Origin: Polyangiales bacterium
GTDB lineage: Bacteria; Myxococcota_A; Polyangia; Polyangiales; Polyangiaceae
Direction of reading: 5' to 3'
Length of the DNA: 64,000 bases
NCBI GenBank assembly: GCA_038231275.1
Contig: JBBRLQ010000015.1
Span: forward strand, 1 to 64,000
Numbering within the stretch: the stretch's first letter is position 1; each line of letters starts with the position of its first letter. The notes under the pieces were generated by a model that made no database searches, was not told where the DNA came from, and saw only the letters and a list, made by a program, of their open reading frames with translations. A program made the position numbers and the translations under genes. Positions 7,683 through 46,092 of the stretch are shown one piece after another.

Positions 7683-8578
7683 GCGATGACTTTGTTTCGA
7701 CCGCCGCGCTTCGCTTCGTACAGCTTCGTGTCGGCGTTCTTGATGAGGTCGGGCGCGGTGCGATCCACGTCTTGGAGGACCGCGACGCCGATCGAGATCG
7801 TCACCGAGATGTTCTCCCCCTGGAAGACGAAGCGGCTCGCCTCGACCTTCTCGCGCAGCCCTTCGGCGAGCGCCTTCGCGCCCTCGAGGTTTGTCTCGGG
7901 AAGGATGATCGCGAACTCTTCACCGCCGTAGCGCGCGAACACCTCGTCGCGACGGATGCGCGCTTGCACGATGCGCGCGAGCTCCTTGAGCACGAAGTCG
8001 CCGGCGAGGTGGCCGTGGTAGTCGTTGATCTTCTTGAAGTGGTCGATGTCGAACATCATGAAGGAGAGATCGCGCGCGTGGCGGCGGGCGCGGATGATCT
8101 CCTTCTCGAGGGCCTCGAGCAGGTAGCGCTTCACGTGCGCACCCGTCAGGCCGTCGATGATCGTCATGCGATAGATTTCTTCGTGGTACTGGGCCTCGAC
8201 GTCCTGACCGGACAGGTACTTGAAGATGGTGGGGCCGACCTTGATGCGGTCGCCGTTGGCGAGGCCCATCTCGCGCGAGATCTGCTCGTCGTTCACGTAG
8301 GTGCCGTTCGTGGAACCGTCGTCGATCGCCCACCACACTTCCCCGCGCTGCTCGATGTGCGCGTGGCGGCGCGAGACGCTGTCGCCTTCCAAGACGATGT
8401 GGTTCTCGGCGCCGCGGCCGATGCGCATGGGGCTGATGTCGAGGACGAAGCGCTTGCCGAGGAGCGACGGCTCCTTGGTGTAGATGACGACCAGGCAATC
8501 CCCTCCCCGCGGGCCGTCGCCGGCCGCAGGCTTCTGCACGATGGCGGTTACGCGTGTCTTTTCCTCGGACTCGCTCAC
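7679..8578 (-). CDS. FHA-domain diguanylate cyclase (FHA-GGDEF)
   Basis: FHA motifs IGR..VSRRHA..STNGT; DIDHFKKIND and RYGGEEF. Confidence 0.92.
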   Translation of the reverse strand: MSESEEKTRVTAIVQKPAAGDGPRGGDCLVVIYTKEPSLLGKRFVLDISPMRIGRGAENHIVLEGDSVSRRHAHIEQRGEVWWAIDDGSTNGTYVNDEQISREMGLANGDRIKVGPTIFKYLSGQDVEAQYHEEIYRMTIIDGLTGAHVKRYLLEALEKEIIRARRHARDLSFMMFDIDHFKKINDYHGHLAGDFVLKELARIVQARIRRDEVFARYGGEEFAIILPETNLEGAKALAEGLREKVEASRFVFQGENISVTISIGVAVLQDVDRTAPDLIKNADTKLYEAKRGGRNKVIA

Positions 8579-9726: not shown

Positions 9727-11566
9727 GGCGCCGGCCCGCCCAATACGCCGCGAGGTAGTCGACGCCCGGGTACACGAGGCGCGGAGCGCCCGAGTCCGCG
9801 AGCTGCCACGGCTGACGCTGCCACTGGAAGTCCTCGACGACGCGATCCTTCACGTCGACCGCGAGCGTCGTGGTGTCACACAGGATCGGTGACGTGCACG
9901 TCGTGTCGTGCGGCATGTACGCCGGCGACGCGGTCAAATTGCGTGCGATGCGAACACGCGGTCCCGGCGAGAACTGCGCGAGCTGGAGCGACGCCGCGTC
10001 GAGATCGGCCTTCGCGGGAGACGCGCGCGTCGCCGCCCAGAGGAACGCGAAATAGGGATTTTTGTGCCCTTTCAGCGCGGTCCACATCTTCCCATCGAAG
10101 ATCTGATCGCGCACGCGAGGACCGAGCGTCGGCGACGTCTCGAGCATCGCGTAGGTGTGCGCGAGGATGAACGCGATGTGGTTCGCAAAGTAGCCGTTGC
10201 CGCAATTTGACCCGAACGTCCACCCGGCGGCGATGTCGAGCCAGGCGGACGCGTGGGCGGCGTAATAGTCCACGAAGGCTTTGTGGTCGGCCTCCATGCC
10301 CGGCACGCCGTCGGTCGTGAGGATCGCGATCTTGAAGATGGCGCCGAGCATGAGCGCCGACGACGCGCGCGGTATCGGAATGGCGACGCCGAGGATTTGC
10401 TTCACGAGGATCGAGTAGTCGGGGAAAAATTCCCGCATCCCGACGATCTTCGCGTCGCTCGGGCTCGAGGTCGACAATGTGATTTGGAGCTTTCCGCCCG
10501 GCATCTCGCTCGGCGCGAGGACGACGTTCTCGAGATCGAGGCTCTTGGTGAAGGACACGTTGCCGTTGATCGTGACGAGGGCCTGGACGCCGGGTCGCAC
10601 CTTCATGAGCTCGCGCGCGACGGCGACGGTGTCCTGACGAAGGATGTCCTTGACCGCGGGATCTTGCGTCGCGAGGTAGCCGACGTACTCGCCGAGGAGG
10701 ACGCCGGTGTACTGGTCGCGGCTCGTGGCGCCGAGCCAATTCACGGCGCCTGCCGGCGTGGCGACGCCGCAGTGCCATTCGGGATCGGCGCACGGGTTGG
10801 GATCGTCGAGCACGGGCGCGCCGGTCGCTGGGAGGACGACGCGCGCGAGGTAGCCAGGATCGCCGGTCGCCGTGAAATTCGTGTGCAGCGTGCGCGCGAT
10901 GGTGGCGACCTGAGCGGCGGCGTCCGGGGAGCCGGTCGCGAGCAGGCGCCATGCCTCGGCGGCGAGCGCGGAGCCGGTCCAGATCGCCGAGTCGTGGAAT
11001 CCGTCGTAGTGCGAGATCTTCGTCAACGTCGCGTCGGTGTAGTCGGCGTTCATTACGGCGCCGGCGGGCATGTTCGTGGCGCGGAGGCGGCGGTCGTAGT
11101 CGCGCGCACGATCGTGGAGGCTGCCGGACGGATCGGGCGCGACGAACGAGTGCGTGCCGAGGTCCCAGAGCTTGCACGTTGCGGACGCGTCGGTCGCGCC
11201 GAGGGCGCACTCGTCGACGCACGCGGTCGCCGAGCACGCGCCCGCGAAGCACCCCGCGGGGCACGTCTCGGTGACCCACGCCCCTCCGTTCGAGGACGGC
11301 ACGCAGTGCGCGCGCTGGTTCCAGCCGACACACTTCGGCGCGGCGTCGGTGCAGCCGTACGGCGCGCCCGCGTCCAAGGGGGTCGGCGTGCTGGCGTCCG
11401 GCGCGACGGTCCCGGGCGCCGCGTCTGGTCCCCCCGAAGACGCGTTCGGAGGAGTCGCGCCGCTGCTGCTCGATGCGTTCGCGCTGCCGCTCCCATCGCT
11501 TCCACACGCCGCGACCGCGCATGCGCCAATTGCGAGGACGCCCAAGGTCGCGGTGCGAACGTTCAT
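9674..11566 (-). CDS. Lipoprotein with Cys-rich region and putative (alpha/alpha)-toroid hydrolase-like domain
   Basis: Lipobox VAAC; DSAIWTG, TSRDQYTG and GVDYLAAYW motifs. Confidence 0.65.
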   Translation of the reverse strand: MNVRTATLGVLAIGACAVAACGSDGSGSANASSSSGATPPNASSGGPDAAPGTVAPDASTPTPLDAGAPYGCTDAAPKCVGWNQRAHCVPSSNGGAWVTETCPAGCFAGACSATACVDECALGATDASATCKLWDLGTHSFVAPDPSGSLHDRARDYDRRLRATNMPAGAVMNADYTDATLTKISHYDGFHDSAIWTGSALAAEAWRLLATGSPDAAAQVATIARTLHTNFTATGDPGYLARVVLPATGAPVLDDPNPCADPEWHCGVATPAGAVNWLGATSRDQYTGVLLGEYVGYLATQDPAVKDILRQDTVAVARELMKVRPGVQALVTINGNVSFTKSLDLENVVLAPSEMPGGKLQITLSTSSPSDAKIVGMREFFPDYSILVKQILGVAIPIPRASSALMLGAIFKIAILTTDGVPGMEADHKAFVDYYAAHASAWLDIAAGWTFGSNCGNGYFANHIAFILAHTYAMLETSPTLGPRVRDQIFDGKMWTALKGHKNPYFAFLWAATRASPAKADLDAASLQLAQFSPGPRVRIARNLTASPAYMPHDTTCTSPILCDTTTLAVDVKDRVVEDFQWQRQPWQLADSGAPRLVYPGVDYLAAYWAGRRHGFVADDRPGTCARFDR

Positions 11567-27731: not shown

Positions 27732-29030
27732 TCAGAGCCCCTTGACCTCGGTCGGGTGACCCGGCGAATCCCCGTACTCGTTGATGGTGCCGCCGCCGAG
27801 CTGGCCGCGATCGTTCTTCCCCCAGCACTGGGCGCCCTGCTTTTTGTGGGCCGCGCAGGAGAACGCTTCGCCGGCGGCGATCCAGCGCGCGTCGACGAGA
27901 TCGAGCACGTGGACCGGGATCTTCGCGATGACCGACGACGGGCCGATGCCGACCTCGAACTCGATGTTCGAGCCCCAGCAGAACGCGTCGCCCTTGGCCG
28001 TCGCGACGCACGTGTGCTCGCGGCCGGCGCCGCCCTGGTACGCGCCGCTCATCCCGATGACGGGGACCGCCTTGTTGTTGATGAACGCGGAGCCGGCGCC
28101 GAGCTCGCCGTTCTCGTTGTCGCCCCAGCACTGCATCGAGCCGTTGCCGAGGATCGCGCAGGTGTGGTCGTCCCCGCCGAAGAGCGCGCGCGCGTCGGTG
28201 ACGCCGACGGCGACGGCGGGGTCGATCTCGTTGGAGCCCGAGGTGGCGTTGCCAATCTGGCCGTCCTGGTTTCGGCCCCAGCACTGCACCGTGCGATCGG
28301 TCATGATGCTGCACGTATGCTCCCACCCGAGCGCGACGGAGCTGACGGTGTCGAGGCCCGGCACCTTCTTGGGGCTGACGACGTTCGCCATGCCCTGCGC
28401 GCCGCACTCGCCGAAGATGTTGCGGCCCCAGCAGTAGACCGTGCCCTGCACGTCGTACGCGCACGTGTGGTAGCCGCCTGCGGAGACGCCGATGACGCCC
28501 GGCATTTTTAGCTTGGTCGGCGTGAAGACCGGATCGGGACCCATCGTGCCGATGCCCGACTCGCCTTGCGTGTTGCCGCCCCAGCACCACAAGCTCTCGT
28601 CGACGGCGAGCGCGCAGGTGTGGTGGGTGCCGGTGGCGACGCGAACGATCGAGGGGAGGCCCTCGACCTTTTTCGCGGAGGGGCGATTCGTCTTGGTGCC
28701 GTCGCCGAGCTGGCCGAGCTCGTTGGCGCCCCAGCACCACACCTCACCGGCAGTGGTGCGGAGGCATGCGTGCGCTTCGCCGGTGGCGATTTGCTGATCG
28801 TTCGCGACCTCGGCGTCGCCGACGAGGATGGTGGGCGGCGGCGCGCCGTCGAGATCGGGCGCGTCGGACCCCGCGTCGGCGTCGCCGTTCGCGTCGAACC
28901 CGCCGTCATCGGTCGGACCCGGCCCGATCGCGTCGTCGTCGAGGAGAAGACCCGTGCGTCCGCACGCGACACCCGACGCGACGGCGACGAACGCGACGAA
29001 CGAAACTCCTAAAATCCCCCAATTACGCAT
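27732..29030 (-). CDS. RCC1-repeat lipoprotein
   Basis: Lipobox GVAC; seven G..HTC...CWG.N..G repeats. Confidence 0.88.
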   Translation of the reverse strand: MRNWGILGVSFVAFVAVASGVACGRTGLLLDDDAIGPGPTDDGGFDANGDADAGSDAPDLDGAPPPTILVGDAEVANDQQIATGEAHACLRTTAGEVWCWGANELGQLGDGTKTNRPSAKKVEGLPSIVRVATGTHHTCALAVDESLWCWGGNTQGESGIGTMGPDPVFTPTKLKMPGVIGVSAGGYHTCAYDVQGTVYCWGRNIFGECGAQGMANVVSPKKVPGLDTVSSVALGWEHTCSIMTDRTVQCWGRNQDGQIGNATSGSNEIDPAVAVGVTDARALFGGDDHTCAILGNGSMQCWGDNENGELGAGSAFINNKAVPVIGMSGAYQGGAGREHTCVATAKGDAFCWGSNIEFEVGIGPSSVIAKIPVHVLDLVDARWIAAGEAFSCAAHKKQGAQCWGKNDRGQLGGGTINEYGDSPGHPTEVKGL

Positions 29031-29693: not shown

Positions 29694-29761
29694 GCGGGGC
29701 TATTCGTCTACCCCTGGGAAGCCCCCGGCGCAACTGCGGGGAATGTCGCCGCGAGTCGAGA

Positions 29762-29807
29762 TCCGACACCGACTCCGGCTCCGACTCCGACTCCGACGCC
29801 GACGCCG
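29762..29807. repeat. Hexamer tandem repeat (CCGACN)n
   Basis: ccgacaccgactccggctccgactccgactccgacgccgacgccg. Confidence 0.7.
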
Positions 29808-30107
29808 CTCTGGCCAGCGAACGACGTCATCCTCGCGTACACCGATCGCATCGTGAAGCACCCTGCGTCGACAGACTGTCATGGACCTCGCGTCGTCGAT
29901 GACAGGTTGACTTCGTGAGGACGCACCCAGCCTGTCGCGCTCGACGCAACGCCGCGCGGCGCCCTGGTGTTGGCGAGGCAACGTCGGGGGTGATCCGAGC
30001 GCAACGCGGCGCGACTGCAGCACAGGTGCTTCAGTCGCGAACGTGCGGCTCGACCGTCAACAACGAACACCGCGTGTGTGGCATGTCGGTTGCGTAAGGG
30101 GCGGTTC

Positions 30108-32106: not shown

Positions 32107-33372
32107 TCAGCGGGCGAGACACTTCAGGACGCCTGCGCCAACCACGATCCCGGTGCCATCGGAAGCGACCGGGCCGTTCTCCAGCCAGCACACGCGCACC
32201 TCGTCCGCGACCACGGCCTCCGGAAAAGCCAGGCCGGTCAAAAGCGCCACCGGCGGACCGCCGCCGCGTGGGAGCTTCATGAGCCTTCCCGCGGGCGGAG
32301 TGGCGTTGAAGTACGTTCCCCCCATCGTGATCCAGACGACGTCGTTCTTGGTGAGGGCCAGCCCTTGCGCGCCGTCGGTGATGTGATCGACGAGCGTGTC
32401 GCTCTGCGCTTGCCCGACCTTGCGGTGAACCAAGCTGCCGTACGGCTTCTTCTGGAGCTGCGATGAACCCTTGTTCAACCAGAAGACCTCGTCGCCGTCG
32501 GCCACGATCCCGTAGGGCATGCTCTCACCGCCGCTCAACGTCGTGAGGGTCGGCGGGCTCGCCGCCGTCGCGACGCTGTAGATGATGCCGTTGAAGCGAT
32601 CGGCGATGTAGAGCGTATCGTTTCCCAATGCCGTGTACGCCGGGAGGTCGAGGTTCATCGCCAACCGCACCGGTGTTCCCAGCGCGCCGCCGTTCAAGGG
32701 CGCCGTCCACACGGAGGAGCTCCTCGACGTGGTCACGCTGATCCAGAAAAGACTCGTCGCCGTCGGCAGCGGGGCGACGGTGTTCGCCTGCGGCAAGACG
32801 GGCGTGCTGGCGCCGCCGGTCTTCGGCATGCGAACGAGCTGCCCACCTTGCGTGAGGTAGATGTCCGCGTCGGAGAGGCCGATCTCGATATTTGTGAACG
32901 CGTAGGCCGCGAGGAGCGTGGTCGCGGTGCCGTCCCACGCGACGCGAACGAGATCCCAAGAGCTGCCGCTGGCGAGCCTGCTCTGAAAGTAAACGGCATC
33001 CTTGTCCATCCGCAGTCGGACGTTCGCCACAGTGAGGTTCGTCTTCATCACGAAGGGCTGGCAGACACCGGCGGCACAGGCCCCACCCAAGCAGTCGTGG
33101 TTGCAGCTGCCGCAGTGGGCCGGATCGCTCGTGAGGTCCGCCTTGCATGCAGCGCCTCCATCGTCGTGGGCGGCTCCGTCGATGGCGGTCGCCGCACCTT
33201 CGGAGCCGCCGCCGTCGACACCACCGGCGCCGTCCGCCTCACCCGCCGCCGCGTCGGCCCTGGCCCCGTCGGCGGGCGCCCCCGCGCCGTCCCCGCTCGC
33301 ACCTCCGCAGGCCGCGCCGCCAAGAATGAGGGCCGTTGCCAGCGCCAAGGTCCCGAGTCGATGGTTCAGCAT
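32107..33372 (-). CDS. Lipoprotein with Cys-rich motif and beta-propeller domain
   Basis: Lipobox GAAC; DPAHCGSCNHDC; repeated ..VFW/VYF.. blades. Confidence 0.8.
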   Translation of the reverse strand: MLNHRLGTLALATALILGGAACGGASGDGAGAPADGARADAAAGEADGAGGVDGGGSEGAATAIDGAAHDDGGAACKADLTSDPAHCGSCNHDCLGGACAAGVCQPFVMKTNLTVANVRLRMDKDAVYFQSRLASGSSWDLVRVAWDGTATTLLAAYAFTNIEIGLSDADIYLTQGGQLVRMPKTGGASTPVLPQANTVAPLPTATSLFWISVTTSRSSSVWTAPLNGGALGTPVRLAMNLDLPAYTALGNDTLYIADRFNGIIYSVATAASPPTLTTLSGGESMPYGIVADGDEVFWLNKGSSQLQKKPYGSLVHRKVGQAQSDTLVDHITDGAQGLALTKNDVVWITMGGTYFNATPPAGRLMKLPRGGGPPVALLTGLAFPEAVVADEVRVCWLENGPVASDGTGIVVGAGVLKCLAR

Positions 33373-33516
33373 GGTTCCAACGTTGAAGAGCGAAACCCGT
33401 GCCTACCTTTGCGGCGGAAATCGTGGGCAAAACACGACAGCGTGGCTGTCCGCGGCGTCGGACAGTGGTGTCCGACTCTTGGGACGGCGACGTCTCGGTC
33501 GTCGAGACGGTCCGGC

Positions 33517-33532
33517 TGGCACGTGTTTCGCT
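33517..33532 (+). promoter_or_regulatory. Putative sigma54 promoter TGGCACG-TGTT-TCGCT
   Basis: GG 33518-33519 and GC 33530-33531 with a 10-nt spacer; just upstream of ATG 33549. Confidence 0.55.
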
Positions 33533-34541: not shown

Positions 34542-36905
<2,364 letters not shown>

Positions 36906-36962
36906 CCCGCGATTTGTGTGATACTTTTTGGTGCCCCGGGCTCGTAGCCGGGACGCGAAGCC

Positions 36963-38087
36963 ATGTCGAAAGCTCCGTCACCGCTCCTCGGGTACAACAA
37001 CAACGTCCGGCACAAAAACCGGATGTTTCACGTCCAGACCGAAGACTCTGGCGTCAAGCACCCGCACATCATCACGCACCTCTTCATGGATGGCGGCCGT
37101 ATCCTCAAGTCGGTCAAGAAGAGCTACGCGGAGCACGTCGGCACCGATGGGATGAGCGACGTCGTCCGCAACATGATGAAGGATCAGCACAAGGAGATGC
37201 TGATCGCGCTGCGCGATGGGCAGTACGACCACCTCGTCGATCCGAAGGCCGCGGCGGCGAAGGCCGCGGCGGCGGCGCAAGCGGCGGCGAGCCAGACCGA
37301 GGCGTCGCCTGCTCCCACGTCGGCGAAGGCGCCGTCGCAGCGCCCGCCGTCGACGAGGCCCGCGTCGCAGCGGCCGCCGTCGGTGAAACCGGGGCCGCTC
37401 CCCAGCGCCGCCAAGCCAGGATCCGCGCGGCCGCCGCCGGTGTCGGCGGGTCCCGTCATCTCGACCGCGAAATCGCAGCCGTTCGAGGACGCGCCGGCCA
37501 CGACACGAACGCCCGCCCAGGCGAACGCCGCCGAGCTCACGCTCGACATCGACGCGCTCGAGCGAGCGGCGAAAGACGCCGAGACCACCGCGCCGATATT
37601 CGAGCCGAAGAACGATCTGCCACCGCCTCCGCAGAACCTTCTGCGCGACAAATCGGTGACCGGTGGCTACCGCACGCTGACGCCGGGGCCGGACATGCAG
37701 AAGCCGCTCAGCCGCCCGCCGCCGCCGTCGCAGCAATCGCAACAGCACCACCAGCAGGGCGGAGCGCGGCGGCCGCCGACGATGCCGCCGCGCAAGCCCG
37801 GATCGGGGCCTCCCGGGAAGCCCGGATCGAGCGGGTCGAGCCCCCCCGGCCGTCAGATGCCGCCGTTCGCAGCGAAGCCGCCGGGCAAGCCGCCGCCGAG
37901 CCGACCCGGCGATGGTCGCTACGCGCCGGCGCGCCCCGCCGCGATCTTCGGCCCGCCCGCGCGCCCGCAGCAGGCGCCGACGTCGTCCCTCTTCGGGGAG
38001 GATCTCATCAGCGACAAGTCGCTCGACGAGGTGATCCTGAGCTACCTGGCCGAGGATCTCGAACCGAACGACAAGAAGAAGCGGTAG
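36963..38087 (+). CDS. Hypothetical protein: globular N-terminal domain, Pro-rich linker, acidic C-terminal helix
   Basis: GYNNNVRHK..FHVQTEDSG; C-terminal SDKSLDEVILSYLAEDL; strong codon bias. Confidence 0.8.
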   Translation: MSKAPSPLLGYNNNVRHKNRMFHVQTEDSGVKHPHIITHLFMDGGRILKSVKKSYAEHVGTDGMSDVVRNMMKDQHKEMLIALRDGQYDHLVDPKAAAAKAAAAAQAAASQTEASPAPTSAKAPSQRPPSTRPASQRPPSVKPGPLPSAAKPGSARPPPVSAGPVISTAKSQPFEDAPATTRTPAQANAAELTLDIDALERAAKDAETTAPIFEPKNDLPPPPQNLLRDKSVTGGYRTLTPGPDMQKPLSRPPPPSQQSQQHHQQGGARRPPTMPPRKPGSGPPGKPGSSGSSPPGRQMPPFAAKPPGKPPPSRPGDGRYAPARPAAIFGPPARPQQAPTSSLFGEDLISDKSLDEVILSYLAEDLEPNDKKKR

Positions 38088-38105
38088 CGCGCGCGTCTCG
38101 ATTTT

Positions 38106-41100
38106 TTACGGCGGCTTCCACGCGACCGCGGCGTCGCGCTCGGCGCTCATCCACGCGCCCGCTGCGGTGAACTCCTCGGCAGCCTTCTTCGCCGCCGCGA
38201 GCGACGCCTCGCGGTCCTTCTTCACCTTGGCGAGCGCCTTCGCGAGCGCGAAGTGGAGCTCGCCGCGCAGCTCGAACGGGAGCCGTTTGGTGGCGGCGAT
38301 CTCCTCCGCATGTTCGAGAAGCGGAAGCGCGACGGCGTGCTGGCCCAGCGCGACGTTGGCGCGCGCGAGGCCGATGATGTCGCCGGCCATCTCGGCGGTC
38401 GCCTTCCCAGAGCGCTCCTCGTCGATCGCGCGCGCGTGCTCGTACGCAGCGAGCGCCTCGGCGTTCTTGCCGGCGCGGAGGAGGACGTGCCCGATATTTC
38501 GCTCCGCGCGCGCGACCTCGGCGTGGGATGGGCCGAGCGCCTTGACGTAGATCGACCTCGCCTTCTCGTAGGTCGCGCGCGCGACGTCGAGCGCGCCGGT
38601 CTGCTCCTGCACGATCCCGAGATCGAGAATGGCGTCTCCGGTCTCCGCGTGCTCGAGGCCGAGCGCCTTCTCGTCGATCCCGATGGCGCGCTCGAGCAGC
38701 GCGGTGGCGCGCGTCGTCTCACCGCGCTTTCGAACCGACAGCGCGACGTTGATGAGCGCGGCGGCGACGGCCGGGTGGTCAGGCCCCAAGACCTTCTCGT
38801 CGATGGAGAGCGCGCGCTCGTAGCTGACGAGCGCGTCGTCGATGCGCCCCGCGTAAGCCTGCGCGACGCCGAGGCTGTTGATGACCTCGGCGACGTCGGG
38901 GTGCTCGGGGCCGAAGATCTTCTCGGTGACGGCGGCGGCCTCTTTGAGCGTGGCGATGGCGTCATCCACGCGGCGTTGATCGCGGAGCGCGCGGCCGAGG
39001 CGCATGAGCGACTTGGCGACGCGCGGGTGATCGGGGCCGAAGAGCGAACGCGCGAGCGCGAGGGCCTCGCGGTGCTTGGCCTCGGCCTCGACGTATTTGT
39101 GCTGGCCGCCGAACATCTGCCCGAGGCCGTCCAAGAGGAGCAGCTCGGCGAGGCCGCCGCCGCCCGCACGCTCGAGGGCAGCGCGCGCGCGTTGCTCGTT
39201 GCGCTGCGCGTCGGCCGCGTCGACGAGCATGCCGCCGCTCAGGCCGACCAGCGTGGCCCAGAGCTCGGCGGCGAGCTCGTCGGAGCGACCGGCCTCGGCC
39301 GCCGCGACGGCCAGGAGGAGCGTGTCGCGCGATCCTTTCACCTCGCCGATCGCAAACTCGAGGCCCCCGCGTAGCGCGAGCGCCTCCGCCTCGAGGGGAC
39401 GGTAGCGCAGGCGCGTGGCGCGATCGACGAGCGGCTTGACGGACGCGAGCGCCTCCTTCGCCTTGCCGGAGTCGCCGAGCGCCTGCGCGCGCGCCAACTC
39501 GACGCGGAGCGCGTTCACCTCCTGGAGCGTCGCGGGATCGTTCGGCGGCGGGACGCGCGCCGTGAGCGCCGTGGTATCGCTGCACGCCTTTATGGGCGGC
39601 AGCTCCGTGACGGCCCGCGCCGCGTTCTCGGTGGCGCCGCGATCGGCGTGCGCGAGGACGTCGGAGAGCGCGCGCAGGTGCTCGAGCCGGTCGTCGAGGC
39701 AGCGCGTCCGCAGCGTGAAGACCTGATCGGATTGATCGCCGCGCACGCGCGTCGCCACGCACGCGTCGGTGCGCGCCGCCGTCCACTCCGCCGCGTACGC
39801 GTCGAGCGCGCGACGTACGGCACGCGCGGCGTCGTCGGCGAACGGCGCGCCGGTCGAATGCAGCGCCGCGTCGACTTCCGCCTTGCGCGCGTCGTCCCAC
39901 GACCCCACCAGCGCCGCCTCGGCCCCCTGGCACATGCGCCCCTTCTGCTGCCCGCGCGCGCCCGCCGCGACGAGCGCGACGAACCCGATCACGAGCGCCG
40001 CCCCCACCACCATCCTCCGCCTCCGCGCCGCAGGATCGCGGGCGAGCGCCTCCAGGAGATCCTCCATCGTCGCGAACCGCGCGTCGGGCTTCGCCGACAG
40101 GCCACGAAGAAGCGCCTCGCGCAGGAACGGCGGCACGCGCGACGTCTTCGGCGCCTTTCGCACGGTCCCGCCGACCACCGAGGCCGCCAGCCCGCGCGGC
40201 GTCTCGCCATCGAACGGACGCTCGCCGTAGAGCGCCTCGTAGAGCGCGACGCAGAAGCTGAACTGATCGGTGCGCGCGTCGGTCGCCCGTCCGGTGTACT
40301 GCTCGGGCGCCATGTACTCCGGCGTTCCGACGACGAAGCCGGGGCGCGTGACGGCGTCGAGCGTCGCCGGCGTGTGCGGACCGCTCGCGGTTCGTGGCGT
40401 CCGTGGCGACTTGGAGAGCGGCGCGTCTCCTGGCGTGCGCACGACAGGCGGTGACGTATCGGCAACGGTGTGCGCGGGCGCGGTCTTCGCGCGGGCGAAG
40501 CTGTCGGGGTCGACCGCCGCGCCGTCCCCTTCTGCGGGCGCCCGCGCGAGGCCAAAATCGGTGACCCGAACGCGCCCGTCGTCGCCGACGAGCACGTTGT
40601 CGGGCTTGAAATCACGGTGAACGAGCCCCGCGTCGTGCGCGGCGGCGAGCCCGCGTCCGGCCTGCGCGAACACCTTCAGGACCTCCGCCTGCGATCGCTC
40701 TTCGCGAAGCCAATGCGCGAGCGTCGGACCCGCGACGAACTCCATCGCGATGAAGACGCGCTCGCCGAACGTGCCGACGTCGTGCACCGCGATGACGTTG
40801 GGATGCGCGAGACGCGCCATGGCCCGCGCCTCGCGAATCAGGCGCCGTTGCCGTGCCGCCGGCTCTTCTTGTCCTCCAGGATCCTCGAGGAGGAGCTTCA
40901 GTGCGACGCGCCGGTCCAGCTCCGGATCGAACGCCGCGTAGACGGCCCCCATCCCTCCTACGCCGACGCGGTCGAGGACGAGGTAGCGGCCGAGCGCCTC
41001 TCCGCGCGCGAGCGGGGCCGAGTCGTGCCTCCGCGGCGCCGCCTCACCGCCCGAGGGATGCGACTCGCCGGTGTACGCCCGCGCCGCGTGCGTCTCCGCC

Positions 41101-41147
41101 GCGCTCCGAGGGGCCTCGCCGTCGTCGTCGTCCTTGGGGGAGCTCAA
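38106..41147 (-). CDS. Membrane Ser/Thr kinase with C-terminal TPR repeats
   Basis: HRDFKPDN, DFG, GTPEYMAPE, a TM helix and GP(D/E)HP TPR repeats. Confidence 0.92.
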   Translation of the reverse strand: MSSPKDDDDGEAPRSAAETHAARAYTGESHPSGGEAAPRRHDSAPLARGEALGRYLVLDRVGVGGMGAVYAAFDPELDRRVALKLLLEDPGGQEEPAARQRRLIREARAMARLAHPNVIAVHDVGTFGERVFIAMEFVAGPTLAHWLREERSQAEVLKVFAQAGRGLAAAHDAGLVHRDFKPDNVLVGDDGRVRVTDFGLARAPAEGDGAAVDPDSFARAKTAPAHTVADTSPPVVRTPGDAPLSKSPRTPRTASGPHTPATLDAVTRPGFVVGTPEYMAPEQYTGRATDARTDQFSFCVALYEALYGERPFDGETPRGLAASVVGGTVRKAPKTSRVPPFLREALLRGLSAKPDARFATMEDLLEALARDPAARRRRMVVGAALVIGFVALVAAGARGQQKGRMCQGAEAALVGSWDDARKAEVDAALHSTGAPFADDAARAVRRALDAYAAEWTAARTDACVATRVRGDQSDQVFTLRTRCLDDRLEHLRALSDVLAHADRGATENAARAVTELPPIKACSDTTALTARVPPPNDPATLQEVNALRVELARAQALGDSGKAKEALASVKPLVDRATRLRYRPLEAEALALRGGLEFAIGEVKGSRDTLLLAVAAAEAGRSDELAAELWATLVGLSGGMLVDAADAQRNEQRARAALERAGGGGLAELLLLDGLGQMFGGQHKYVEAEAKHREALALARSLFGPDHPRVAKSLMRLGRALRDQRRVDDAIATLKEAAAVTEKIFGPEHPDVAEVINSLGVAQAYAGRIDDALVSYERALSIDEKVLGPDHPAVAAALINVALSVRKRGETTRATALLERAIGIDEKALGLEHAETGDAILDLGIVQEQTGALDVARATYEKARSIYVKALGPSHAEVARAERNIGHVLLRAGKNAEALAAYEHARAIDEERSGKATAEMAGDIIGLARANVALGQHAVALPLLEHAEEIAATKRLPFELRGELHFALAKALAKVKKDREASLAAAKKAAEEFTAAGAWMSAERDAAVAWKPP

Positions 41148-41222
41148 CGCATCGAGGATACCTCGACCGTCGCGCGCGCGCCCGGGCGCGCCGTGCGCGA
41201 CGGTCCGTCACGACGTACGGGC

Positions 41223-41393
41223 AAAAAAAACGTGCCCAGACGGCCCTGCGCTCAATGAGGGGGAGCGCAGAGCAGCCTGGGCACGGGGCCACGCGGTTGG
41301 GGTGGGTGGGGTTTGGGCCGCGTGGCCTTCAACGCGTGACCCAGCGGCGTAGGAGGGGCGCCGCCCAGGTCACGTCTTCTATCTGGGGTCGGG
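41223..41393 (-). ncRNA. Candidate small RNA with three C-rich-loop hairpins and a U8 terminator
   Basis: Three adjacent inverted repeats (41231-41285, 41287-41327, 41335-41374) and an A8 run at 41223-41230; stem mismatches become G-U pairs on the minus strand. Confidence 0.65.
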
Positions 41394-41403
41394 CTTCACG
41401 ATG

Positions 41404-41419
41404 CGCAAGGTGGACGCCG
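41404..41419 (-). promoter_or_regulatory. Possible sigma54 promoter CGGCGTCCACCTTGCG
   Basis: GG-N10-GC with TTGC; would place the TSS near 41393. Confidence 0.35.
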
Positions 41420-41546
41420 TACCTTTCCTTTCGCGAGGGGTCTCACCGTCGTCGCCTCGTTCGGGGATGCAACCGGCGTGGCCCGAAATCGATTCCCGTC
41501 CAGTGAGGGGTCTCATCGCGCAGCTGTGCGGACGCGTCGCGCGCGC

Positions 41547-42725
41547 TCAGATCATCTTGGAGGCCGCGGCCTCACGCGCCTCGAGCACGCACGCACGCTC
41601 GTGGTCGGACACGGGGCACGATGCGTCGACGATCCGCGCCGGCGCCTCGCCCGCGAGGATCATGGTCCGCACCGCCGCGCTGCCCGCGAGGAGATCGAGC
41701 GCCGGGATGTCGTCGACGAACTCGTAGCGCTCAGTCCGGAAGCGGAAGGCGTCGGGCGCCTGCCGATGCGCGAGCGCGAGGAGCGCGACGTACGTGGCGA
41801 CGGGGCGAAACGCGCGCGCGTCGGTGACGTGGAGCTGAACGCCTCCGCAGATCTGCCCCGCGTGCTTGTGGAACATGGGACGAAACGTCAACGGCCGCGC
41901 CACGACGCCCGGCACGTGCGACCGGAGCTCCGCGAGATCCCGCGCGAGGCGCACACCGTCGAGCCACGGCGCGCCGGTGATCTCGAAGGGCCGCGTGGTC
42001 CCTCGTCCGTCGGAGAGGTTCGTCCCTTCGAGGAGGCAGCCGCCGGGGTAGACGAGCGCGGTGTCGATCGTCGGCATGTTCGGCGACGGCATCACCATCG
42101 GGCGATCCCACGCGGTCGCCAGCGCACCTCTCTCGACGCCGCGCGCCGCGAGAACCTGCACGAGCGCGCCGTGCCCCTCGACCTCCGCGCGCCACGCCAC
42201 GATCTCGCCGAGCGTGAGCGCGTGACGAATCGGCACCGCCTCGAGCCCGACGAACGAGAGAAACCCCGGCTCCTGGACCCGCCCCTCGATCTCTTCCCCG
42301 CCGAGCGGGTTCGGCCGATCGAGGACGAGCACCTTCACGCCGAGCTTGGCGCACGCGCGCACCACGAGCACCGCGGTCCACACGAACGTGTAGTACCGAG
42401 CGCCGACGTCCTGAAGATCGATGACCAGGAGATCGATCCCGCGCAGATCGCCGTCCTTCGGGACGAGATCGTCGAAGTGTGCACCATACAAGCTTCGCAC
42501 CGGCGTGCCGCGCGCGTCTCTCGCGTCGTCCACGCCGATCATGTCCTGCGCCTCGCCGCCATAGCCGTGCTCGGGGCCGAAGATGATCACGGGGCGCGCG
42601 CCGAGACCTTCGAGCACGTCGCCGATGTGACGGAGGGAGCGATCGACGGAGGCTGGGTGCGCGAGGAGTGCGAGGCGCTTCCCGCGCACGTGGTCGGCGG
42701 TCAGCCGATCGATCCCGAGCTGCAT
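41547..42725 (-). CDS. DUF1343 / NamZ-family exo-beta-N-acetylmuramidase
   Basis: FGPEHG, DLQDVGARYYTF, DRPNP, PSPNMP and GRGTTRPFE motifs. Confidence 0.9.
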   Translation of the reverse strand: MQLGIDRLTADHVRGKRLALLAHPASVDRSLRHIGDVLEGLGARPVIIFGPEHGYGGEAQDMIGVDDARDARGTPVRSLYGAHFDDLVPKDGDLRGIDLLVIDLQDVGARYYTFVWTAVLVVRACAKLGVKVLVLDRPNPLGGEEIEGRVQEPGFLSFVGLEAVPIRHALTLGEIVAWRAEVEGHGALVQVLAARGVERGALATAWDRPMVMPSPNMPTIDTALVYPGGCLLEGTNLSDGRGTTRPFEITGAPWLDGVRLARDLAELRSHVPGVVARPLTFRPMFHKHAGQICGGVQLHVTDARAFRPVATYVALLALAHRQAPDAFRFRTERYEFVDDIPALDLLAGSAAVRTMILAGEAPARIVDASCPVSDHERACVLEAREAAASKMI

Positions 42726-42791
42726 CGGTCGGTTTTATCCGCGCGGCGACAGGACGCCAACGTTTCGGCGGCTCGGGCGTTCAAGAGGAGC

Positions 42792-43617
42792 ATGCTCGAC
42801 GTGCTGGTCTTCGTGCTCGCCCATCACGATCCGGCGATCCCCGCGACGATCGTAGCGGGGGCGTGGCTCGCGCCCTGGGGTGGTGTGTGCGTGCTCGCTC
42901 TCGTAGCGCTCGCGACGTGGGCACTCCTCGAGCGGCGCGGGCGAGCGGCGTGGCGCACCGAGACGGCCCACGTGGTCATGGCGACGGACGGGCCCTACCG
43001 GGCGTCGGCGCTGAACCTCCCGCGGACGCGCGCGCCAATCGGCATCCGACTCGCGACGCTACTGGCGCTCCTCGGCGCCTCGGCGACTCTGCCGTGGGTC
43101 GGCGTCGGCCTCGCCGAGGCGGTGGGGGCGCGGAACCCGCTCGTGCTCGCGGTAGCGCTGCTGCTCGCGGGGACCGGCGCGTGGATGGTGCGCGCGAGCG
43201 GGGGGGCGCTTTCGCATCGGAGCACGCGCGGAGCGAGCTTCGCGTGGATCTCTTCGGCCGCGGTCATCGCCGTAGCGCTCGGGGTCTGGTTTGGAGTGCT
43301 CGACGCATGCCTCGTCGAAGTGCATGGGCTCAAGGGCCTCCGCGCCGTGCTTCCCCTGGGGGACGTGCTGAGAAACGGTGGTGTCTTCTCGAGCTTTCGG
43401 CGGCCACGTCGCGCCCGTGTGGCGCGTGCTCCTCGTCGCCGCCATCGCCAGCGGCGTCGCTGCGCAGCTCGCGGCAGGAGCCGTGTGGATCGCGACGCGG
43501 CGACGTCAGCGGATTCCGTCGGCCGCACCGGCGCTCCTTGTGCGGCAGCCTCGTCAGCGCGGTTTCTCCGCGCGCACACGCCGCCCTCCATCAGCACACA
43601 TCCCGCCACCCTTCTGA
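42792..43617 (+). pseudogene. Multi-pass membrane protein with an apparent single-base frameshift near 43396
   Basis: GAGGAG RBS; TM-rich frame turns Arg-rich after 'SSF' while the next frame continues FGGHVAPVWRVLLVAAIASG (a TM segment). Confidence 0.55.
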
Positions 43618-43675
43618 GGGTGCGACGCGGTGCGGGCTTGTGTGGCGGCGGCCTCGCGCGGTACGCGCGTCGCTC

Positions 43676-44635
43676 ATGAAGGTCGCTCTTTCCGCTCTCG
43701 TCGTCGGGCTCTCGATCGCGTGTGCACCGGGCTGCAGCTCCGCGCCTGACGACAACGCCGACACGGCGGAGTCCGCGAGCACGACGGCCAAGATCAAGAC
43801 CGTCTTCGTCATCGTGATGGAGAACCACGATTGGGCCAGCATCAAGGGCAGCTCGTCGGCGCCGTACATCAACGGTCACCTCCTTCCGCAAGCCGCGTTC
43901 GCCCAGAACTACCAGGGCGCGCCGGGCATGCACCCGAGCCTGCCCAACTACGTCTGGCTCGAGGCCGGCGACAACCTCGGGATCACGGACGACAGCGATC
44001 CCAGCACCCACCACCAAGCCACGAAGGACCATCTGGTCTCGCAGATCGTTCGTTCCGGTCGCGACTGGCGCTCCTACCAAGAGTCGATCGACGGAACGGA
44101 ATGCCCGCTCACCGGCACTCCTTTCCTGAGCCGCTACGTTCCGCGCCACAACCCGGCGGTCTACTTCGACGACGTGACGGACGGAAACGATCCCAACTCC
44201 GCCAACTGCATCCGCCACGTGCGCCCCTTCGGCGAGCTCGCCAAGGATCTGCACGCCGGCAAGGTGGCCGCCTACAATTACATCACGCCGGACCTTTGCC
44301 ATGACATGCACGGGCAAGAGATCTCGTGCCTCTTCGGCGATCAGATCAAAGCGGGCGACACCTGGCTCTCCAAGACGATCCCGATGATCCAAGCCTCCGC
44401 GGCGTACCAAGCCGGCGGCGCGATTTTCATCACCTTCGACGAGAACGAAGGCGGGCAAAAGCCGATCGGAATGATCGTCGTGAGCCCGTTCGGCAAGGGC
44501 GGGGGCTACACCAACTCGATCGCGTACACGCACAGCTCGACGCTGCGAACGATCGAAGACATCTTCAAGCTGACTCCGTTGCGCGGCGCTGCCAGCTCCA
44601 ACAACCTGAAGGATCTCTTCCGCTCGTTCCCTTGA
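43676..44635 (+). CDS. Phosphoesterase (acid phosphatase/phospholipase C family) lipoprotein
   Basis: VIVMENH, HPSLPNY, RHNP, HDMH, TFDE and YTHSSTLRTIE motifs. Confidence 0.88.
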   Translation: MKVALSALVVGLSIACAPGCSSAPDDNADTAESASTTAKIKTVFVIVMENHDWASIKGSSSAPYINGHLLPQAAFAQNYQGAPGMHPSLPNYVWLEAGDNLGITDDSDPSTHHQATKDHLVSQIVRSGRDWRSYQESIDGTECPLTGTPFLSRYVPRHNPAVYFDDVTDGNDPNSANCIRHVRPFGELAKDLHAGKVAAYNYITPDLCHDMHGQEISCLFGDQIKAGDTWLSKTIPMIQASAAYQAGGAIFITFDENEGGQKPIGMIVVSPFGKGGGYTNSIAYTHSSTLRTIEDIFKLTPLRGAASSNNLKDLFRSFP

Positions 44636-44727
44636 TTTCGCCGGGCACCTTTTTTTCATCCGCGTGGGGGCCAAGCGCCGCAGGCCCTTTTTGTGCTGGG
44701 CGTCCAGGTATGCAATAGTTGCGGCCC

Positions 44728-46092
<1,365 letters not shown>

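Follow-up and report, generated by a model that had tools for sequence, protein, structure and literature searches.

Evidence for a conserved, apparently uncatalogued small RNA family with C-rich loops in Polyangia-type myxobacteria

Results

Locus and fold of the element

The window, i.e., the whole 64-kb stretch of DNA that was analyzed, carries three adjacent hairpins on the minus strand between a NamZ-family gene and the gene of a Ser/Thr kinase with TPR repeats (Table 1). An earlier note on this DNA had described three hairpins with C-rich loops and a U8 end at this site. The coordinates it gave, including those of the loops and the A8 run, were all verified on the sequence, and the minus strand of 41221-41375 does fold in this way. 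For 41215-41425 the minus-strand fold has an energy of -102.7 kcal/mol and a z-score of -5.96, and none of 200 dinucleotide shuffles folded as well. The plus-strand fold is lower in raw energy (-112.1 kcal/mol) but weaker in z-score (-3.79). Raw energy therefore does not favor the minus strand, which is favored instead by the z-score, the U-tail and the G-U counts given below.

The composite stem of H3 has 22 bp and is followed by the U8 tract, which is the arrangement of an intrinsic terminator. A simple terminator scan missed H3, as the scan was limited to loops of 8 nt and the H3 loop has 9. The hexamer CCCCUC is found at 41505-41510, 41435-41440, 41353-41358 and 41257-41262, besides the H2 loop.

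Table 1. Features of the small RNA locus and its neighborhood in the window.
Feature	Position	Strand	Basis or remark
purL	34542-36905	+	Forms a neighbor block with the romY-like gene
romY-like gene	36963-38087	+	Protein with RomY N-terminal domain
Ser/Thr protein kinase with TPR repeats, downstream	38106-41147	-	Pfam Pkinase 1.8e-35, TPR_12 4.3e-59
Kinase 5' region	41147-41205	-	GC-rich hairpin 41165-41205 (window-specific insertion), RBS CGAGGUAUCC 41156-41165, TTG start 41145-41147
Block conserved with L001	41222-41498	-	82% identity over 284 aligned positions
U8 tract of intrinsic terminator	41223-41230	- (A8 on plus)	Sequence; directly after H3
H3, terminator hairpin, loop CCCCUCAUU at 41254-41262	41231-41285	-	Fold
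H2, 10-bp stem, 21-nt C-rich loop CCCAAACCCCACCCACCCCAA at 41297-41317	41287-41327	-	Family-defining hairpin; covariance models
Single-stranded linker CGUUGAAGG	41326-41334	-	Window's form of the near-invariant family UUGAGGG box 5' of H2 (alignments)
H1, 7+7 bp, loop CCCCUCCUA at 41350-41358	41335-41374	-	Fold; loop holds the CCUCCU anti-Shine-Dalgarno core
Candidate sigma-70-like promoter, TTGCGC (41403-41408), 17 nt, CAGATA (41380-41385)	41380-41408	-	Family box
GGAATC-N19-TTGCAT	41467-41496	-	Degenerate counterpart of the ECF-type box of relatives
NamZ-family exo-beta-N-acetylmuramidase, upstream	41547-42725	-	Pfam NamZ_N 1.3e-55, NamZ_C 1.1e-43
NtrC-like sigma-54 activator	44719-46092	Divergent from namZ	3.3 kb from the RNA element; namZ neighbor also in L049 and L019

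Relatives and covariance models

A protein search of genome contigs with NamZ yielded 80 loci from Polyangiaceae, Labilithrix and other Myxococcales. With blastn, the intergenic region aligns to one of these alone, L001, whose NamZ is 80% identical. The conservation between the window and L001 begins about 50 nt after the namZ stop codon and ends abruptly after U8-G. More distant members were located through T-runs at a fixed distance after namZ, followed by covariance models. Four further loci have a T-run at the same distance past namZ, and they have in common a hairpin with the loop CCCCCUCCCCC and a terminator.

The covariance model R1 was seeded with these four loci only (L036, L040, L045 and L068), and the window was left out. 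R1 nevertheless matches the window at 41221-41335 on the minus strand, covering H2 and the terminator, with 38.1 bits (E 2.3e-7), and L001 is matched with E 1.7e-4. Exactly one full-length match was obtained in each of 28 of the 81 sources (the window and 27 of the 80 related loci). A second model, R2, was built from these 28 sequences and recovers the same 28 at 43 to 93 bits (window 58.9), while the next match has only 20 bits. An additional member in L052 is cut by the contig end; it was confirmed by R3, a model of the 5' hairpin of nine relatives.

In the alignment of the 28 sequences, 94.8% of cells are paired and compensatory double changes occur in 22 of 26 base pairs, comprising all 15 terminator pairs and 7 of 11 H2 pairs. 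The covariation score is 0.462, compared to 0.229 after shuffling (0 of 500 shuffles reach the observed value) and 0.05-0.10 with slid partners; the alignment is fitted to the model, which favors structure, but the margin is large nonetheless. The relatives with conserved loops and covarying stems that were to be expected under the earlier note were thus found. Among 706 cells there are 71 G-U and 9 A-C combinations, and the T-run is always 3', with 7-9 T following the terminator stem in 21 of the 28 members; for the remaining 7, the tail is T-rich. Therefore, the RNA strand is the minus strand, and the argument of the earlier note, that imperfect pairs read as G-U on minus and A-C on plus, holds across the family.

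A chance fold is excluded, and the structure, its strand and its single-copy syntenic location are established. The covariation is a clear sign of selection on the stems, and the conservation of the loops of selection on their sequence. As judged from the alignments, the family core has three parts, namely the UUGAGGG box, which is single-stranded, a hairpin whose apical loop is C-rich, and an intrinsic terminator. To this core the window copy adds the 5' hairpin H1, and its terminator is enlarged by a stretch that includes a third C-rich loop. According to the family alignment, the outer 11 bp of H3 are homologous to the family terminator, and the inner 11-bp stem with its C-rich loop is an insertion confined to the window and L001. 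The architecture varies among members, which have one, two or three C-rich loops, are in some cases inverted in place, and have the ECF-type box intact or degenerate. The carriers are Polyangia-type myxobacteria, i.e., genomes and MAGs of Polyangiaceae and Labilithrix. One of them, Labilithrix luteola DSM 27648, is cultured, and its copy lies at approximately 5,370,996-5,371,082 of NZ_CP012333.1 (L018, 11811-11897).

Location and copy number

The loci have a constant frame of NtrC-like activator, (divergent) namZ, Ser/Thr kinase, RNA, RomY-like gene and purL. In the window, as elsewhere in the family, the RNA is present as a single copy between namZ and the romY-like/purL block. Among the members, namZ is between less than 0.1 and about 5 kb away, and the RNA may be on either strand. 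Where the romY-like gene is in view (20 members), the RNA is convergent with it in 14 cases and lies downstream of it on the same strand in 6. ORF calls show a convergent gene past the terminator for 17 of the 28 members, and tblastn adds 3 more, which makes at least 20 of 28. As the RNA gene is inverted in place in some genomes, it would form its own transcription unit, and it is independent of the neighboring genes.

No second copy was found in the 64-kb window by repeat search, blastn or R2, and each member locus has one copy across 947 kb. The earlier note had named dispersed copies as the mark of a REP-type repeat; in all sequence examined (the 64-kb window and 80 loci) the element is single-copy and not REP-like. 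Among the 27 loci with the interval from namZ to romY fully in view, 7 have neither a copy nor a C-rich hairpin with a T-run. This suggests that the RNA can be dispensed with or that it moves within genomes.

The element could be thought of as functionless in itself, i.e., as nothing but the 3' UTR and terminator of namZ or as a REP-like palindromic repeat. In the window, it does lie downstream of namZ on the same strand, and no clear terminator was seen between the two. Still, this reading is hardly credible given the members on either strand up to 5 kb from namZ, the conserved loops with 22 of 26 covarying pairs, and the low copy number, with a single copy in the window and no more than one at any locus over 947 kb. 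We consider it very probable that minus-strand positions 41375 to 41223, about 150 nt, are the gene of a conserved small non-coding RNA.

C-rich loops and the 5' hairpin

Of the 28 members, 25 have an H2 loop of the form C(3+)-U-C(3+); the remaining three (the window, L001 and L059) have C(3+)-A-C(3+). Its C content is 0.61-0.80 across the 28 members, and the loop stays while the stems vary. In the window, the loop follows the motif C(n)-A-C(n) with a C fraction of 0.68, and its sequence, CCCCACCCACCCC, is without a CCUCC core. The family-defining loop is therefore not of the anti-Shine-Dalgarno type in the window copy. The earlier description of C-rich, anti-Shine-Dalgarno-like loops is accurate in that all three loops are C-rich and that H1 contains CCUCCU, but it does not extend to the H2 loop.

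H1 of L001 has the same loop as the window, and its two stem changes (C-G to U-G and G-C to G-U) preserve pairing on the minus strand only. In addition, 9 other members and L052 have a longer 5' hairpin at the position of H1, with the loop UCUCCCUCCUAG and support from covariation. The window and L001 share the loop motif CCCUCCUA with all of the 9 other members with H1 but one, L048, which differs. When searched with R3, the H1 of the window gave no match with default filters at E up to 10, and with filters off the score was 7.7 bits. With a score this low, H1 and the hairpin of the relatives count as equivalent in position and motif rather than as demonstrated homologs.

Two short reading frames noticed by eye were rejected as coding. 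The first, of 14 codons, runs through H1 and stays open in both the window and L001, but it has no RBS, each of the three differences between the two copies changes an amino acid, and the relatives have a stop in CCUCCUAG. The second is a 14-aa ATG frame of L032, which is absent from L044.

Candidate promoters

A sigma-54 promoter of the type GG-N10-GC had been proposed in the earlier note as the driver of the RNA, and this did not hold up. The motif is present at 41404-41419, but it departs from the consensus at 5 of 12 specified positions, and it is not conserved. Only the window has GG-N10-GC, as L001 has GG at N12, and in members such as L041, L044, L035 and L049 no GG stands at the correct spacing before the conserved TTGC. 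Sigma-54-like matches with at most three mismatches number 71 in the window, compared to 82 expected by chance. A better-looking alternative sigma-54 site at 41468-41483 was rejected on account of its wrong spacing (N11) and the loss of its GG in L001.

The GG-N10-GC motif overlaps a -35-like box. Here, CTTGC(C/G)C-N17-CAnnTA could be aligned in 14 members, with the invariant columns within TTGC, and in the window an A-rich patch (41422-41432) precedes the sigma-70-like box. We infer that transcription starts near 41371-41375, at the foot of H1, from the RNA's own putative sigma-70-like promoter. A scan of 36000-46000 for sigma-70-like sites found none.

A different box, GGAATA-N16-(C/T)GTC, is found upstream of the RNA and on the same strand in 12 relatives. 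In 1.89 Mb, the pattern GGAATN-N16-[CT]GTC has only 22 occurrences, of which 12 precede the RNA by 115-230 nt in the same orientation. For two of the other 10, a copy is truncated at that place or lies just beyond the available sequence. ECF promoters are described, in excerpts of a published account, as having a GGAAC-type -35 element and a CGTC -10 element with a spacer of about 16-17 nt (PMC3397946). By sequence, the box of the relatives fits promoters of ECF sigma factors. Neither the window nor L001 conforms to the pattern, and in the window the spacing is 19 and TGCA takes the place of TGTC.

Probable connection to the kinase gene

Between the window and L001, the kinase N-termini can be aligned starting with residue 1, and the RBS (CGAGGUAUCC in the window) is conserved. 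In L001, the U8 tract ends at 2696 and the TTG start of the kinase is at 2720, leaving 23 nt between them, and the RBS CGAGGTATCC starts 6 nt past U8. In the window, U8 and the kinase RBS are set apart by an insertion of 52 nt that includes a GC hairpin. As there is no room for a promoter in the 6 nt between U8 and the RBS of L001, the kinase must be transcribed by read-through of the terminator or from inside the RNA gene. A read-through coupling from RNA to kinase is thus likely in the lineage of the window and L001.

The earlier note had offered an attenuating leader of the kinase as an alternative. For the family as a whole this can be set aside, since a convergent gene follows the terminator in at least 20 of 28 members, and a leader function is therefore excluded. 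In the lineage of the window and L001 it may still apply as an extra role, given the 23 nt from U8 to the start codon in L001. A stronger version would make the element of this lineage mainly a cis-acting leader or attenuator of the TPR kinase, where transcription starts upstream of H1, H3 and U8 stop most transcripts, and the kinase is expressed from read-through only, possibly modulated by a binder of the C-rich loops. The kinase is indeed co-directional with the RNA, the enlarged H3 with its C-rich loop is found only in the two genomes with the kinase downstream, the L001 gap is too short for a promoter, and the search of 36000-46000 for sigma-70-like sites was empty. Even so, we regard this version as unlikely, as the convergent gene is the rule in the family, the 22-bp stem with U8 makes a strong terminator for which no alternative antiterminator fold is evident, and the hairpin-bearing 52-nt insertion of the window parts U8 from the RBS.

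Searches for known families and for targets

Rfam 15 gave no significant match in the region 40800-41900, in five member loci, or in the whole window at gathering thresholds. For the cuckoo RNAs, which the earlier note had named for comparison, cmscan with E up to 10 gave no family match. The best Rfam alignment, at 41228-41331 on the minus strand, is to Scr3202 (RF02833), a Streptomyces sRNA, and was rejected with 28.3 bits against a gathering threshold of 52 (E 0.1). The likeness to Scr3202, i.e., two GC-rich hairpins, C-rich loops and a U tail, is one of composition and shape only. Likewise, an alignment of Atu_C7 to L036 was rejected (22.3 bits against a gathering threshold of 45). No tRNA or tmRNA was found.

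Duplex energies of the loops with the 43 ORF starts called in the window, from crude GC3-based calls with uncertain start codons, revealed no convincing target. A G-rich RBS complementary to the loops is absent from the kinase, namZ, romY-like and purL genes.

Discussion

Taken together, a conserved sRNA family that is read from its own gene and acts on other mRNAs through its C-rich loops is the best overall explanation of the data, and one we hold to be rather probable. Transcription would start from the RNA's own sigma-70-like promoter, TTGCGC-N17-CAGATA, and relatives may in addition use the ECF-type box farther upstream. The exposed C-rich loops could then serve as redundant seeds for G-rich or Shine-Dalgarno sequences at translation-initiation regions. 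Pairing of the loops might block ribosome binding, as in Hfq-independent anti-Shine-Dalgarno sRNAs such as NfeR1/alpha-r14. In the lineage of the window and L001, the TPR kinase may in addition obtain its transcript by read-through of the H3 terminator. Action in trans through the C-rich loops is reasonably probable, and for occlusion of the RBS as the mechanism we see a little less than an even chance.

The C-rich motifs could also titrate a protein. CsrB and RsmZ present GGA motifs as protein-binding sites, and by analogy the family RNA could be a sponge for a poly(C)-binding or similar protein. Repeated C-rich motifs, with loop sequences that are kept while stems vary, fit a sponge equally well, and the number of motifs would rise to as many as five or six if the conserved upstream block is transcribed. 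However, many members, namely the group without H1, have a single C-rich loop, which is few for a sponge, and no candidate protein is linked to the RNA. The constant neighbor is a RomY-like polarity protein and not of an RNA-binding family; as a protein with the RomY N-terminal domain it was rejected as an RNA-binding partner. A sponge is accordingly quite unlikely, and action of the loops on mRNAs stays the preferred reading.

Sorangium- and Polyangium-type myxobacteria are the main natural-product producers. In a full-text literature search, no description of this RNA or of sRNAs from Sorangiineae/Polyangia (Sorangium- and Polyangium-type) was found. PMC10128143 has the term 'small RNA' only in the reference list. 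The family is thus a conserved sRNA family that is apparently uncatalogued so far, although the kind of element, a trans-acting sRNA with C-rich loops, is already well known. With its strong covariation, a clear seed hypothesis in the form of the C-rich loops, and a cultured carrier, the family is a well-delimited candidate. It makes several questions testable, i.e., whether anti-Shine-Dalgarno-type riboregulation operates in myxobacteria that lack Hfq, whether Pxr has deeper relatives, and whether the terminator of an sRNA can double as the gate of a kinase gene.

Comparison with known systems

The closest functional parallel is provided by NfeR1/alpha-r14, also named 'cuckoo', of alpha-rhizobia. 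In the parts of the source drawn on, this RNA is described as having three hairpins with redundant anti-Shine-Dalgarno motifs in unpaired regions, and as blocking the RBS independently of Hfq (PMC10746234). The window RNA likewise has three hairpins and C-rich anti-Shine-Dalgarno motifs, and in both cases the stems diverge while the motifs stay. In contrast, alpha-r14 has an identical CCUCCUCCC in each hairpin, while the window loops CCCCUCCUA, CCCAAACCCCACCCACCCCAA and CCCCUCAUU are unlike one another and none equals CCUCCUCCC, and the carriers belong to another phylum. The window RNA is not a member of the alpha-r14/cuckoo family, but by analogy alpha-r14/NfeR1 is the best model for how it probably works.

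A second parallel is found in the sigma-E or ECF-dependent sRNAs. MicA, RybB and MicL of E. coli are envelope-stress sRNAs under this type of control. The likeness consists of the ECF-type box of 12 relatives and the neighboring namZ, a cell-wall recycling gene. The differences are that the box of the window is degenerate, that no ECF factor is linked to the RNA, and that there is no sequence relation.

Within the myxobacteria, the comparison is with Pxr, which in the parts of the literature drawn on is the sole myxobacterial small RNA discussed (PMC5568312; PMC5684412). According to these excerpts, Pxr has 108 nt and three predicted stem-loops, the 3' one being needed for accumulation (PMC5568312; PMC5684412), the loop of stem-loop 1 (SL1) is essential, and M. 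xanthus is without hfq (PMC5684412). The same excerpts place pxr directly between pxrR/nla19 and MXAN_1080 with a sigma-54 promoter (PMC5568312), and report Pxr, after a 2014 paper, from Cystobacterineae only (PMC5568312; PMC5684412). The complement of the published SL1 probe, as given there, has a C6-A-C4 tract (PMC5568312; PMC5684412).

The earlier note had suggested the window RNA as an analogue of Pxr. At most a functional resemblance can be claimed: both are myxobacterial multi-hairpin RNAs, and the essential apical loop of Pxr, an RNA of an organism without Hfq, lies in a C-rich tract. The three hairpins of the window have C-rich loops, any of which would at most be a candidate counterpart of the Pxr SL1. 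The location, promoter type and taxon differ, since the window RNA is flanked by namZ and the TPR kinase, has no conserved sigma-54 motif, and is carried by Polyangia.

A Polyangia ortholog of Pxr, the developmental gatekeeper sRNA of Myxococcus, is a further step, and one that is very unlikely to be correct. Both RNAs have several hairpins within about 100-150 nt and a terminator hairpin at the end, the C6-A-C4 tract of SL1, as given in the excerpts, recalls the C(n)-A-C(n) loop of H2 in the window, and an NtrC-like sigma-54 activator is a conserved neighbor of namZ. On the other hand, the excerpts on pxr describe other neighbors and a sigma-54 promoter, compared to namZ, kinase, romY-like and purL genes and no conserved sigma-54 motif here. 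Moreover, romY (MXAN_5749 in M. xanthus; RomY as described in excerpts of PMC9481161) is far from MXAN_1078, Pxr is reported in the excerpts as restricted to Cystobacterineae, and there was no Rfam match of any kind in the window region or the five member loci.

A broader version would see the family as the Polyangia counterpart of Pxr, homologous or convergent, i.e., as an ECF-controlled multi-seed RNA that gates social or developmental programs and has been wired to the TPR kinase by read-through in the window lineage. This is a long shot. If it were true, Pxr-type control would date to the base of the myxobacteria or would have arisen twice.

Occurrence of the RNA in related loci

Seven of the related loci collected with NamZ as query (L024, L046, L055, L060, L061, L066 and L075) have a namZ-to-romY interval that is fully covered yet contains no copy of the RNA, and the RNA has therefore been lost or relocated in those genomes. 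Two other loci probably represent further members of the RNA family which extend just beyond the retrieved sequence, as L053 has a GGAATA-N16-TGTC box at the end of the locus and L052 has a truncated copy of the RNA.

Elements flanking the RNA gene

The conserved block 5' of the promoter-like box contains two more GAGACCCCUC motifs, and a longer RNA transcript, should there be one, would have five or six such C-rich motifs in all. Several relatives have a palindrome, ACACA-N7/8-TGTGT, whose sequence overlaps both the -10-like box and the predicted start. It lies at equivalent positions in L041, L032, L044, L035 and L030; the window lacks it. The palindrome may serve as the operator for a repressor, or it may form a hairpin at the 5' end of the RNA. 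On the other side of the RNA gene, a GC-rich hairpin of 41 nt is found immediately 5' of the kinase RBS, within a 52-nt insertion that L001 does not have. The hairpin may serve to mask the RBS, or it may be an element for processing or stability.

Gene neighborhood and other features of the window

A Phosphoesterase-family ORF separates namZ from the NtrC-like activator gene in the window, and these two genes are directly divergent in many relatives. The strongest sigma-54-like sites of the window are the two listed in the table. The products of the two sets of coding repeats are probably repeat proteins of the beta-propeller or calcium-binding type.

Coordinates of features in the window and, where indicated, in related loci
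Feature	Position	Strand	Detail
18-nt tandem repeat	2-127	 	perfect, ~6 copies of CCGACTCCGGTTCCGACG, at window edge
Coding repeats	2105-2912	 	GCCGTCGCCGTCGA-type, period ~110-230 nt
Coding repeats	27789-28774	 	period ~150 nt, 6 copies, core CCCCAGCAC
Asp/Ser/Gly-type repeats	near 29751-29816	 	related to 18-nt tandem repeat
Sigma-54-like site	33389-33404	-	AGGCACGGGTTTCGCT; ATG of 421-aa ORF 32107-33372 about 22 nt downstream
Sigma-54-like site	33517-33532	+	TGGCACGTGTTTCGCT; one mismatch
RomY-like gene	36963-38087	+	NCBIfam RomY_Nterm
RomY-like gene	L041 11340-12332	-	NCBIfam RomY_Nterm
RomY-like gene	L070 9383-10342	-	NCBIfam RomY_Nterm
GC-rich hairpin	41165-41205	-	
C-rich motif	41435-41440	-	
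C-rich motif	41505-41510	-	
Phosphoesterase-family ORF	42668-44635	+	Pfam domain, E 2e-23
NtrC-like activator gene	44719-46092	 	
Palindrome	L041 about 11165-11190	 	
Terminal box	L053 13020	+	
Truncated RNA copy	L052 7684 and 7784-7859	+	

The constant neighbor of the RNA is a RomY-like gene, and purL comes next after it. The RomY-like proteins of the window, L041 and L070 match RomY_Nterm with E values of 1e-33 to 1e-35, and a C-terminal motif (...DKSLDEVILSYLAEDLE) is found in the protein. In the polarity control of Myxococcus, RomY is the MglB co-GAP (PMC9481161).
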